Assembly (NCBI GenBank): GCA_964462685.1
Contig: CAYWYR010000002.1
Span: forward strand, 68,609 to 132,608
DNA: 64,000 nt
From: an uncultured Hyphomicrobiales bacterium
GTDB lineage: Bacteria; Bacteroidota; Ignavibacteria; Kapaibacteriales; UBA2268
Direction of reading: 5' to 3'
Part shown: positions 60,338 to 64,000 of the stretch, in pieces
How positions within the stretch are numbered: the first letter of the stretch is position 1
How the letters are laid out: each line of letters begins with the position of its first letter
The notes under the pieces: generated by a model
The model's database searches: none
Seen by the model: only the letters and a program-made list of their open reading frames with translations
What the model was told of the DNA's origin: nothing
Program-made: the position numbers and the translations under genes

Positions 60338-60943
60338 TCATTTTTTAATCTTATTAAAAGAAAATTTTATTAAGTACACAACTTGCATCAATAAACATAA
60401 GAGAATAGATGCACGAATATTAAATATCATAAGAACTTGCTCATCTCTATAAAGTTCAGATCCTATTCTTAATAACGAATAGGATATTATGTATATAATA
60501 ATGTAGTATTTTTTTGAGAATGAAATGATATACATTAATATTAACAATATAGATAATTCAATAATTTGAAGATCAATAAATTGATTAGTTAGTAGGTTGC
60601 TATTGCAACACCCAACTGTATAACAACCAAATTTGCCAATAGACTGCAAAATCAACAAACATAATATTATATATTTATCTATAACCTTATTATCAAATAA
60701 CCAAAATATAGAAATGGCAAAGATACCACCTAGCATAGAGTGGTTATATTCTATAGAGTCAGAAAAAGCATACAGTATATTAAAAATAACAAAACCACCA
60801 ACAAGACCTATAATGAGTATAATAATGTAACGTCTGTAAAGTTTACTATAATATTGCAATTTCGTATCTATGAATAAAGAAATAGCTATAGATAAAACTA
60901 TAGCTATATATGACAATACACCAAAACTATTAATAGAATACAT
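60338..60943 (-). CDS. Divergent, short prolipoprotein diacylglyceryl transferase (Lgt)-like protein
   Basis: Highly hydrophobic; IGKFGCYTVGCC (GRxGCxxxGCC-type) and YSLLRIGSELYRD (YxxxRxxxExxR). Confidence 0.7.
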   Translation of the reverse strand: MYSINSFGVLSYIAIVLSIAISLFIDTKLQYYSKLYRRYIIILIIGLVGGFVIFNILYAFSDSIEYNHSMLGGIFAISIFWLFDNKVIDKYIILCLLILQSIGKFGCYTVGCCNSNLLTNQFIDLQIIELSILLILMYIISFSKKYYIIIYIISYSLLRIGSELYRDEQVLMIFNIRASILLCLLMQVVYLIKFSFNKIKK

Positions 60944-61104
60944 ATTAAATAATAAATTTAATAAAGTAATGGATAAGGTATAGGATATGCAGAATAATTA
61001 CAATCTTGTGGATAATAAGTATCACTAGAAGTCCTGTAATCAATTAATTTTCCTTTATTGTCGTAACATTCGACACTAACATGAACTACCACTGTTTTAT
61101 TACA

Positions 61105-61416
61105 TTATATAGGCCAAGTAAAGGAACCTTCAGCATGGGTGAAGTTACTATATTGTGCAGGAGCATTTGCTGATCTAAACCACATATCAACTGGTGTTGC
61201 AGTACCATGGGTAATTTGTACATTTCGCAATGTATATGCAGTACCACTAATAGAATTTTCACAATAAGAGGCATCAAACATTAACGTAAATGAACAATTT
61301 CCTTCGCAATGTCCATTTTTTACTGTTGGGCAACCGCAACAAAAAGCAAATAATGCTAATGATGATACTAATAGCAGTGTAAAGAATATTATTTTATCTG
61401 TGTTATTGATTTTCAT
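61105..61416 (-). CDS. Small Cys-rich exported protein
   Basis: Signal peptide, then FCCGCP...HCEGNC...YC. Confidence 0.6.
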   Translation of the reverse strand: MKINNTDKIIFFTLLLVSSLALFAFCCGCPTVKNGHCEGNCSFTLMFDASYCENSISGTAYTLRNVQITHGTATPVDMWFRSANAPAQYSNFTHAEGSFTWPI

Positions 61417-61418
61417 AC

Positions 61419-62180
61419 TTATTTCACCTTATAAGTAAGTTGAAGTGAAGCACCATAAGTATACAAATAATTTTTATTACTTATTGTAGTATCAATTTGA
61501 TTATAGCCAAATAACTCTACAAAAAAGTACCTATTATTAGGAATACTATTGAGCATTGCAGGTGTAATTGTAAACACTCCATTTTTAGAGGCAGTATGGT
61601 ATTCTTCGTAAGCTTCATTCACAGATATTGTAGAATCCAATAATAGACGCGAAAGTTGTTGGGCACTTCTTATTCTAACAACCATATTTGTCGCATTTGG
61701 AAAAGCTGTATAAGTCAGTGTAAATCCATTACTTTTAGATATAGTTATTGAATCAGGTAAGGGAGTGATTATATCCCCAAAACCTACTCCATTATTTGTT
61801 ATACTGAATGTTGGTACAGTAGTTAAATTACCTACTATATCATAGCTATATGGAGAACCATCATATGGAAGATCATTAGATTTATGTTGATTACTGCTAG
61901 TACCATTAATAATTATGTCTAGTGGAGTGGCTGGATTTCCTGAATTATCATAAAAATACCAATCATGTTTAGAATAATTATTGTATGCTGAAAAGTCATA
62001 CAAATACTTTTTGTAAATAAATGAATATAAATATCCATCTTTACCAACTGGATTATTACTAAAAATATCATATTGATCAACTGTAGAATCTCCAACATCT
62101 GTACTATTCTCATCACAAGAAGTAAATAGTACAAATATTATAAATAAGAAAGAGTATTGTTTTCTCACAATATACCTCAA
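61419..62180 (-). CDS. Lipoprotein (paralog B)
   Basis: Lipobox FTSC followed by acidic DENSTD; 253 aa. Confidence 0.8.
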   Translation of the reverse strand: MRYIVRKQYSFLFIIFVLFTSCDENSTDVGDSTVDQYDIFSNNPVGKDGYLYSFIYKKYLYDFSAYNNYSKHDWYFYDNSGNPATPLDIIINGTSSNQHKSNDLPYDGSPYSYDIVGNLTTVPTFSITNNGVGFGDIITPLPDSITISKSNGFTLTYTAFPNATNMVVRIRSAQQLSRLLLDSTISVNEAYEEYHTASKNGVFTITPAMLNSIPNNRYFFVELFGYNQIDTTISNKNYLYTYGASLQLTYKVK

Positions 62181-62937
62181 TTTGTTAAGTAAAAATATTG
62201 ATCTGTAGATGTGCTACTGTAAAGCATACCTTTTTTTCCGTTAACTACAGTACTATCAAGAAGATGATGTTTGATTGAACAAATATAATATCTATCAGGT
62301 TCAAAATCGATTAAATCTTGAGATGTAAGACTTATTGTTCCATTATCAAGTGCAAAGAAAGTTTTGGATATTGATCCTTGTGGATCTAGTGAATCGTTAA
62401 TTCCAAATTCCCAGTTTAACAACCTGCCACTATCTAGAACTAAAGTAATATCACCATAGCCATGAGAACCTGTATAATCTAAATTGAAACCAGACTTAGA
62501 TACCGTATCGGTTTTAGATGGTGATGTAATTTTCAACCTAGTTGATTGTGTTTGCGATATTGTATGATTCATACCATCGTAGTCGTATAGATGCCAATTA
62601 ATATTAGTATTATGATAATTAGGGTTATCAGTTACATACCTATAAAATCCTTTGGTTGTGGACTTACTAAGTGGTAAATTATCATGAATTACACTGTCTA
62701 TATCTATAAAGCCCGCTATATCGGAAAAAACAGCTTGAAGTTGTAATCTATGATCAGAAAGTTGAGGATTACCCATTATCCAGTATTCATCGTGGGCAGA
62801 AGATATTAATGCAAAATCACCACCTAATGGTACATTAGCTTTTTTGTACTAAGCATATGACTTTCTTCATTTTCATCACAACTACACATCAATACTATCA
62901 TTGCAACTAAAATAAATATTTTTTTCTCACTTAACAT
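62177..62937 (-). CDS. Lipoprotein (paralog A), split at an A_AAA_AAG heptamer (62839-62845); a -1 shift gives 253 aa
   Basis: The leader MLSEKKIFILVAMIVLMCSCDENE... stops at TAG 62824-62826. The -1 frame continues ANVPLGGDFAL... into ORF 62177..62776. Confidence 0.75.
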
Positions 62938-63518
62938 GGGCAATCTCCTGGTACATATAAAGTACCGTCTGATAGTTTTACAATCATTGTTGGTAGTATA
63001 ATATTTACCCCACCACATGGTAAAATTACATTTACATAAGGCTCTGTATTCAACACCCTATAACCTACACATTCGGTTGTATTAGTAAAATTAGGATAGT
63101 CAGAATAATACATTTGTTGTAGAAAAAATTGAAAAGAAATATCAACTTCCATAGTAATGAATTTACTTTGACCTTTCAATTTAACAAATGGCAAATATTG
63201 AAGATCCTCTGGACATACATCTTCACCAAAAACAGGACTATTATAAGGTGCTTCAATATTTACCAAGTCTTTTTGAATAGCATTCGTTTTAACTTCTATC
63301 TGTAAATCTGGTGCATCACAAAATTTTTTGAATGAGGTATATTCTTGTCCTTCAAAAAGAGTGTGAAACTTTATATAATATTCATTTGTGCAACCATCTT
63401 CACGGCATTCTGATCCTGATGGACAACTACTTGCAATTAGAAATGGCAAGCATATAATCATCGCAAATACCAATTTTATTATCTTTATCATATAAATCCT
63501 TGATCGAATTTTTATCAC
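62931..63518 (-). CDS. Cys-rich lipoprotein
   Basis: Lipobox ASSC, then PSGSECREDGC; ends in GDCPC. Start probably at MIKIIK. Confidence 0.7.
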   Translation of the reverse strand: MIKIRSRIYMIKIIKLVFAMIICLPFLIASSCPSGSECREDGCTNEYYIKFHTLFEGQEYTSFKKFCDAPDLQIEVKTNAIQKDLVNIEAPYNSPVFGEDVCPEDLQYLPFVKLKGQSKFITMEVDISFQFFLQQMYYSDYPNFTNTTECVGYRVLNTEPYVNVILPCGGVNIILPTMIVKLSDGTLYVPGDCPC

Positions 63519-63560
63519 CCTGTAATATATACAATATATTTTAATGACAAACTTTATCTA

Positions 63561-64000
63561 TTACAATCGCCACTCCAGCATCATCTGATCGCCCACACCG
63601 CCTACTATTGAAGAAAGGCCAGACACGGATATACCCAGTAGCCTAACCGGGTATGGCGGCACTAGTGGATAGCGCAATAATCTTTTTGATACCTCGGCTA
63701 TTTTAAAGCTATCAGCTGTGGGTGTTGATATAGTAGAAGACCTGGTGTTTATATTAAAATCGCTTGATTTGATCTTGACAGTGATGGACTTGCCTTGTAA
63801 CCTGTGCCTTTTGAGACCCTTTGATACTTTTTCGGCAATCGCATCGAGTATCTGCTCCATAATATCGGGGTCGGTTATGTCATTTTGGAAAGTTCTTTCC
63901 GCGCCGAGTGATTTCCTGATACGGTCTGTCTGTACTGGATTGTAATATTCATCGTTGAGGATGTGATAGAAGAACGCACCGCGCTTTCCGAAGTATTTCT
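63561..64000 (-). CDS. dinB: DNA polymerase IV, C-terminal part; runs off the window end
   Basis: KYFGKRG...RIRKSLGAERTF...ITVKIKSSDF...TRS...VRLLGISVS (IMS C-terminal domain). Confidence 0.92.
   Translation of the reverse strand, partial: KYFGKRGAFFYHILNDEYYNPVQTDRIRKSLGAERTFQNDITDPDIMEQILDAIAEKVSKGLKRHRLQGKSITVKIKSSDFNINTRSSTISTPTADSFKIAEVSKRLLRYPLVPPYPVRLLGISVSGLSSIVGGVGDQMMLEWRL

Follow-up and report, generated by a model that had tools for sequence, protein, structure and literature searches.

A lipoprotein gene split at an A_AAA_AAG heptamer in an uncultured mat bacterium is probably a recent frameshift allele

A-run systems and the geometry of the split gene

The P78 lipoprotein of Mycoplasma fermentans, on which Theiss and Wise worked in 1997, reportedly undergoes phase variation by frameshift in a short N-terminal poly(A) tract. 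This tract is said to lie just after the signal peptide and lipobox, where a change of a single base turns the mature protein off, and high-frequency switching has reportedly been shown experimentally. The heptamer A_AAA_AAG, for its part, is the slippery site of E. coli dnaX and of the IS911/IS3 insertion sequences. The closest documented analogue of the gene described here is the A7/A6 tract of Listeria monocytogenes inlA (Orsi, Bowen and Wiedmann 2010, PMC2831843). According to that report, a short 5' A run in the gene of a cell-surface protein is in frame as A7, whereas A6 shifts the frame and brings a stop a few codons later, and this 5'-end tract reverts from A6 to A7 at about 5.5e-7. 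In the GeneTack survey (Antonov et al. 2013, PMC3711429), homology-validated frame transitions that occur as singletons are attributed to a recent indel or an error.

Here we analysed a window, that is, a stretch of 64,000 nucleotides (C2:68609-132608) from an assembly of 47 contigs, 2.95 Mb and 40% GC, the DNA of which was found in runs of one microbial-mat sample. The MurB protein of this uncultured bacterium is most similar to those of Bacteroidales and Balneolaceae MAGs (46-49% identity), and no congener was present among the genomes compared. On the minus strand of the window, a lipoprotein gene lies in two frames, a short leader and a long body, which change at an A6 run within an A_AAA_AAG heptamer (Table 1).

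Table 1. Position of the split gene, its junction elements and its neighbours in the window
Feature	Coordinates	Strand	Remarks
Leader ORF	62937..62824	minus	37 codons + TAG; signal peptide, lipobox-like ...VLMCSC, then acidic DENEES stretch
TAG that closes the body frame shortly before the A run	62853..62851	minus	bounds the overlap of both frames
Body frame	62848..62177	minus	223 open codons + TGA (62179-62177)
A_AAA_AAG heptamer	62845..62839	minus	A6 run 62845..62840 + G 62839; site of frame change
Palindrome CTAATG-TAC-CATTAG	62838..62824	minus	6-bp stem, 3-nt loop; holds the leader-frame stop
Upstream Cys-rich lipoprotein gene of the cassette	62931..63518	minus	195 aa
Adjacent intact paralog, same family	61419..62180	minus	start at TTG 62180 (253 aa) or GTG 62168 (249 aa)
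Downstream small Cys-rich lipoprotein gene of the cassette	61105..61416	minus	103 aa; no Pfam or NCBIfam name

The leader ORF starts at an ATG (62937-62935) that overlaps the stop codon of the upstream gene (ATGTTAA) and ends at a TAG (62826-62824), its C-terminal end being ...STKKLMYH*. Read on the minus strand, the junction is ...AGT ACA AAA AAG CTA ATG TAC CAT TAG; the codons ACA AAA AAG occupy 62847..62839 and place the heptamer in X_XXY_YYZ phase in the leader frame, with the stop five codons on. The two frames overlap over 8 codons only, and the A run lies inside this overlap. A -1 shift joins leader residues M1-K33 to 220 body codons beginning with GCT (Ala), giving a product of 253 residues, so the A6 run makes up codons 32-33 of a 253-codon gene, i.e. 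it sits in the coding region near the 5' end. Gene callers give only a 199-aa piece from ATG 62776, without the signal peptide. The body carries no further damage, as its 223 codons stay open in DNA of 33% GC and align end to end with the family described below.

These data bear out the preliminary description of the leader codons, the phase of the heptamer, the 253-aa product of a -1 shift and the hairpin directly 3' of the heptamer, all of which we confirmed on the minus strand. That description had also given the adjacent paralog the same length of 253 aa. The equality holds if the paralog is started at TTG 62180 and is lost if it is started at GTG 62168, which gives 249 aa; the match in length is thus partly accidental, hinging on the choice of start. 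This start is ambiguous, as the TTG overlaps the TGA of the split gene and the GTG gives the commoner signal-peptide start MRKQYSF....

The split gene resembles P78, as that system is described, in being a lipoprotein gene with an A tract past the lipobox region. It differs in phylum and cell envelope, and in that switching of P78 is said to have been demonstrated experimentally, whereas any switching of the split gene would be hypothetical. With dnaX and the IS911/IS3 sites it shares the heptamer and its phase, and the only tRNA-Lys found in the genome has a UUU anticodon; unlike these sites, it has no upstream Shine-Dalgarno (SD)-like element, no stable or properly spaced downstream structure, no conservation and no useful 0-frame product. 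As in inlA (PMC2831843), the A run is short, lies close to the 5' end of the gene of a predicted surface protein and, in its A6 form, shifts the frame by a one-base change in length, so that a stop follows a few codons later. The differences from inlA are that the A7 allele was not seen among the contigs and proteins searched here, that the host is an uncultured environmental mat bacterium, and that the tract lies in the tether after the lipobox, the inlA tract being at codon 3-8 (PMC2831843). Finally, the split gene is like the singletons of the GeneTack survey in showing a frame transition in one genome only with homology on both sides, and unlike them in that an error is made unlikely by contigs of a second run (PMC3711429).

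A single lipoprotein gene, its family and its cassette

To relate the two frames to the family, we used a profile of 19 members, namely 18 library relatives and one genomic relative, from which the window's own sequences were left out. The leader frame matched profile positions 1-33 (E 0.0034 among three frames) and the body frame matched onward to position 261 (E 1.3e-57). The two matches are collinear and no segment is lacking. Because homology thus extends on both sides of the junction, beyond what the geometry of the ORFs indicates, leader and body are one gene. The earlier proposal that they are two halves of a single lipoprotein gene broken in the A6 run was therefore upheld, as was the proposal that a one-base backward shift restores a family-typical product, since 253 aa compares with ~250-260 aa in relatives. 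The leader also resembles that of the paralog and that of the first family copy at locus L005, described below.

With the body as query, an exhaustive HMMER search detected 26 library proteins at E<=1e-3. Nine of the ten library relatives retrieved are continuous proteins of 248-270 aa with a signal peptide leader and a lipobox Cys, and the nearest one, P0003, has 257 aa and 40% identity. The split gene has the attributes of the family, namely signal peptide and lipobox Cys, tether, and a length within ~250-270 aa. Alignments reveal the conserved motifs DTISKS.G...Y.G, DNG, NRYY and a C-terminal FYL, which the split gene shares, and neither Pfam nor NCBIfam has a match to the family. One Logan-only protein, P0004 (219 aa, 40% identity), lacks a leader, its sequence beginning M-P-Y-G-G-D-F just past the junction position; this could be another copy that is split, or a gene call that was cut short.

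An AlphaFold model of the body (pLDDT 92.8) is all-beta, with disorder in residues 1-5 only. Foldseek returned only generic tandem FN3/Ig-like matches (best E 5e-6) with low TM scores of 0.2-0.39. The body codes for the entire mature part of a lipoprotein of ~255 aa, with two predicted Ig/FN3-like beta-sandwich domains. Since only residues 1-5 are disordered, the change of frame would fall in the flexible tether between the lipidated Cys and the first domain, and Lys-Lys appears to be tolerated there, in what is predicted to be the sole disordered part of the mature protein. The family can thus be outlined as one of uncharacterised putative lipoproteins with a signal peptide, a lipobox Cys, a short disordered tether and two predicted Ig/FN3-like domains. 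The product of the split gene, which has acidic residues after the Cys, is predicted to be a surface or exported lipoprotein.

The genome carries two copies of the family only, the split gene and its intact neighbour, which share 26% identity over 121 aa (E 1e-4). Both belong to a five-gene cassette (60338-63518) with a GC content of 31-33%, compared to 40% for the genome, that is tightly packed with ATGTTAA and TTGA overlaps. Its 195-aa upstream Cys-rich lipoprotein has no Pfam family above cut-off and no NCBIfam family. At the other end of the cassette, a 201-aa multi-pass membrane protein (60338-60943) gave no Pfam match at E<=1 and no NCBIfam match at E<=0.1, so that an Lgt-like identity finds no support in either collection. 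In a metatranscriptome run, the sole contig on the cassette covers 63276-63475, in the 5' part of the upstream lipoprotein gene, a signal for which carry-over of DNA is possible.

We then looked at the junction across relatives. Matches to the family occur in 16 of the 401 genomes of the class, the source genome included, and internal stops are confined to the window's copy among the 18 match rows; none of the 16 matches in the 15 other genomes is interrupted. Among the 41 nearest genomes, the family is found only in the source genome and in one distant genome (25% identity). Pattern scans of metagenome contigs, and of genome contigs with the body, P0003 and P0005, revealed no relative, and none closer than ~40% identity turned up in any search. 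Conservation of the split in relatives, which the preliminary description had named as a check on its proposal, was thus not observed among the relatives found, none of which shows the split.

A further comparison comes from G017, a genome of the same taxonomic family and another genus, in which locus L005:103-3466 (G017:C22) has the same gene order as the window's cassette. There, after an ORF of 221 aa, comes a 200-aa Cys-rich lipoprotein, followed by copy 1 (254 aa) and copy 2 (251 aa) of the family and, last, by a Cys-rich lipoprotein of 141 aa. Copy 1 reads TCT ACA AAA AAA ATT GCA AAT, i.e. S-T-K-K-I-A-N, and is continuous through an in-frame A8 run, at the spot where, in the window, the leader frame reads ...S-T-K-K and the body frame A-N.... 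The shared arrangement rests on the tandem pair, the gene order and the sizes, because the flanking genes are not detectably similar, the first gene showing no similarity between window and L005 and the last gene marginal similarity. By BLASTP, the body of the split gene and L005 copy 1 share 22% identity (E 0.002); cassette position and the match in leader and tether weakly suggest that the two are orthologous. Relatives showing A7 with a continuous ORF had been put forward as grounds for abandoning frameshifting at this site. Copy 1, uninterrupted through a run that is longer than A6, is such a case in spirit, but a distant one at that level of identity. Another member of the family, L008, has an A6 run (CAT AAA AAA GTT) located about as far from the Cys. 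By our own reading, however, Lys-Lys is found in the tether of only ~3 of the 13 other members looked at, so the tract is not a conserved feature of the family.

The heptamer and its surroundings

Known frameshift stimulators sit ~5-9 nt from the slippery site. At the split gene, the AU-rich 6-bp stem abuts the heptamer with a spacer of 0 nt. Because the stem starts right after the heptamer, the hairpin would lack the spacer with which to meet the ribosome during decoding of the slippery codons, to go by the dnaX and IS sites. Its predicted stability lies between -3.5 (centroid) and -4.1 (MFE) kcal/mol (z -0.82), which 36 of 200 shuffled sequences equal or surpass. For the 111 nt downstream, predicted folding is poorer than that of the average shuffle (z +0.92; equalled or surpassed by 165 of 200). 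Inspection by eye of the 30 nt upstream of the heptamer revealed no SD-like element of the GGAGG or AGGAG type.

We also asked how the genome treats such heptamers elsewhere, using the 2169 non-overlapping ORFs of at least 120 aa, which cover 88% of the genome. A_AAA_AAG occurs in phase 190 times against 194 expected from codon frequencies. The proportion of NNA codons is 0.214 before AAA_AAG and 0.222 before AAA_AAA, compared to 0.341 before AAG_AAA and 0.317 before AAG_AAG. The genome thus mildly avoids long A runs overall, and not the shifty heptamer in particular. The same ORFs contain 792 A runs of A7 or longer (609 A7, 164 A8, 15 A9, 2 A10 and 2 A11), among them 110 in-phase A7+G runs, each of which is one A-loss away from an in-phase A_AAA_AAG. 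In a scan of all 1885 AAAAAAG sites on both strands, the split geometry was found at 5; the other 4 are ordinary gene starts, and no other gene split at such a heptamer was detected genome-wide.

Some slippage is nevertheless conceivable at the site. Among the 30 tRNAs in the assembly, a set that is incomplete and from which a CUU species may be unassembled, tRNA-Lys(UUU) is the sole tRNA-Lys. AAG owes its slipperiness in E. coli to the same circumstance, and the heptamer here has the correct phase, which makes a degree of -1 slippage mechanistically plausible. As reported in one E. coli study, reporters carrying motifs without stimulators gave values 2.1- to 10-fold over a background of 0.055%, and A_AAA_AAG is markedly under-represented in E. 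coli genes (PMC4066793). Another describes 25-60% unprogrammed -1 frameshifting at C-AAA-AAA in an E. coli over-expression vector (PMC1851650). Because of the latter values, the lack of a stimulator does not prove that slippage at the split gene is low, and its level cannot be predicted from sequence.

State and origin of the A6 run

The length of the A run was checked at the contig level in Logan contigs of three runs (X1, X2 and X3) of one sample, at a depth of ~4.5-8.5. A contig of X1, possibly the source run, spans 62496-63590 and has A6 with 0 differences and 0 gaps. A contig of X3 (62616-62866), likewise free of differences and gaps, holds the whole A6 run and ends 21 nt past it, the bridging rule being 31 nt. 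In X2, contigs break off at 62812 and the next one begins at 62840, precisely on the run's first base, leaving a hole at 62813-62839; in the body frame, position 62813 is the final T of a TTT codon. This hole could reflect a co-occurring strain that differs at ~62813 and ~62839, or a gap in coverage, and is evidence neither for nor against a variant. No variant in tract length appeared in the contigs that cross the A6 run (X1 and X3), although a minority allele may be present. Furthermore, the 199-aa product of the split form is found on 4 contigs (NCBI, JGI/IMG), and no continuous ~253-aa form was present among the proteins searched, the homologue search returning only the window's 199-aa piece.

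These results bear on the possibility that the true tract is A7 and the gene intact, the split being an error of sequencing or assembly. Homopolymers are classic sites of indel errors, the depth is low and all data come from one sample. However, contigs from two runs carry A6, which makes an assembly error unlikely, all 4 contigs in the protein collection have the split form with no 253-aa form beside it, and a run of six bases is short for an Illumina-type indel (a platform that is assumed for the DNA runs, only that of the RNA run being recorded). We therefore consider an error extremely improbable, contrary to the preliminary description, which counted it as equally possible.

Taken together, our observations are probably best explained by an ordinary lipoprotein gene whose frame was broken by a real change in the length of the A run in its tether, that is, by a recent frameshift allele. 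The simplest history would be the loss of one A from an ancestral ACA AAA AAA GCT (T-K-K-A), which would automatically leave ACA AAA AAG C.. behind. Since loss of one A from an in-phase A7+G run creates the heptamer, the latter would have come with the mutation as a by-product instead of having evolved as a signal. Translation would then stop five codons on, yielding a 37-aa leader peptide with the gene off, and at most traces of the full-length protein would arise from unprogrammed slips that ribosomes or RNA polymerase make on the A run. As every assembly seen carries the split form, the off allele would dominate the population. Compared with intact homologues the gene is interrupted, as expected of a frameshift pseudogene, and further decay in the form of stops, indels or lost residues was not found; if it is a pseudogene, it is a recent one. 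Because the body is intact, either the change is recent or the tract reverts. Some observations sit less comfortably with a recent mutation. The undamaged 223-codon body fits a gene still in use equally well; the in-phase heptamer and the lone tRNA-Lys(UUU) make some slippage plausible; the split form is the one seen in every assembly, with no continuous 253-aa variant; a second allele could cause the break of the X2 contigs at the edge of the run; and frameshifting without stimulators can be high, as reported at C-AAA-AAA (PMC1851650).

The intact body would equally be expected if the A run were a slip-prone contingency tract alternating between an in-frame length (on) and A6 (off), the assembly having captured the off state of a displayed lipoprotein that varies. 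Such phase variation would be in keeping with the product, which is predicted to be exported by, or displayed on, a Bacteroidota-like bacterium, and with a tract near the 5' end; the in-frame A8 at the same spot in L005 copy 1, the A6 in L008 and the X2 contigs that break exactly at the run's edge agree with it, as does the precedent of A7 in frame and A6 frameshifted in inlA (PMC2831843). On the other hand, A6 or A7 is short for an efficient switch, and the criterion for poly-AT tracts in the GeneTack study is a minimum of 7 nt (PMC3711429). No length variant was found in any contig or in the protein collection, and the Lys-Lys tether is shared by only ~3 of the 13 other members. Moreover, with 792 runs of 7 or more A in the coding ORFs of this genome, the run here is unremarkable and needs no special explanation. 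Phase variation thus strikes us as unlikely.

Programmed -1 frameshifting, in which a set fraction of ribosomes slips on A_AAA_AAG and yields a fixed low dose of full-length protein relative to its cassette partners, can likewise draw on the intact body and on the split form being the only one seen, and further on the in-phase heptamer, the lone tRNA-Lys(UUU), the 0-frame stop 5 codons downstream and the presence of a small hairpin. This hairpin is weak, however, no better than shuffled sequence and without a spacer, and no SD-like element lies upstream. The split occurs in no relative found, the 0-frame product would be a 37-aa leader without evident function, and no second gene in the genome was found to make use of a site of this kind. 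Furthermore, the heptamer is not avoided in phase here, unlike in E. coli (PMC4066793), and the host's dnaX has an A10 run instead of this heptamer at its candidate recoding site. The suggestion that programmed frameshifting sets stoichiometry within the cassette was therefore not supported, as a credible stimulator is missing, no relative found shares the split and the heptamer is common in normal genes; we rate this reading as very improbable. A broader reading, for which we see a somewhat better though still minor chance, is that the site is used without classical stimulators, either for a low-efficiency -1 shift that fixes a small ratio or as a reversible A-tract switch of one tandem lipoprotein in a free-living mat bacterium; the A8 of the relative would then be a maintained slip-prone tract and not a chance Lys-Lys.

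A recent frameshift allele at this position also carries a caution. Because it results automatically from the loss of one A from A7+G, an in-phase canonical heptamer at the split gene is by itself no evidence of recoding, in a genome that has 110 such precursor runs and whose normal genes contain the in-phase heptamer 190 times. Should tract length vary in raw reads, the gene would exemplify a surface lipoprotein that an environmental bacterium turns on and off through a homopolymer. The analysis also defines an unannotated family of tandem Ig/FN3-like lipoproteins (domains as predicted), with a tandem pair in two genomes of one taxonomic family.

The dnaX gene of the host (L101:1474-3078, G000:C5) is a 535-codon open frame that matches TIGR02397 with 425 bits. 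Its A10 run (L101:2638-2647) reads GGC AAA AAA AAA ACT GAA and lies at codons 388-391, past the conserved N-terminal part, with a TGA in the -1 frame directly after it. This layout is as would be expected for a short gamma-like product made by slippage, and is not of the A_AAA_AAG-plus-hairpin type.
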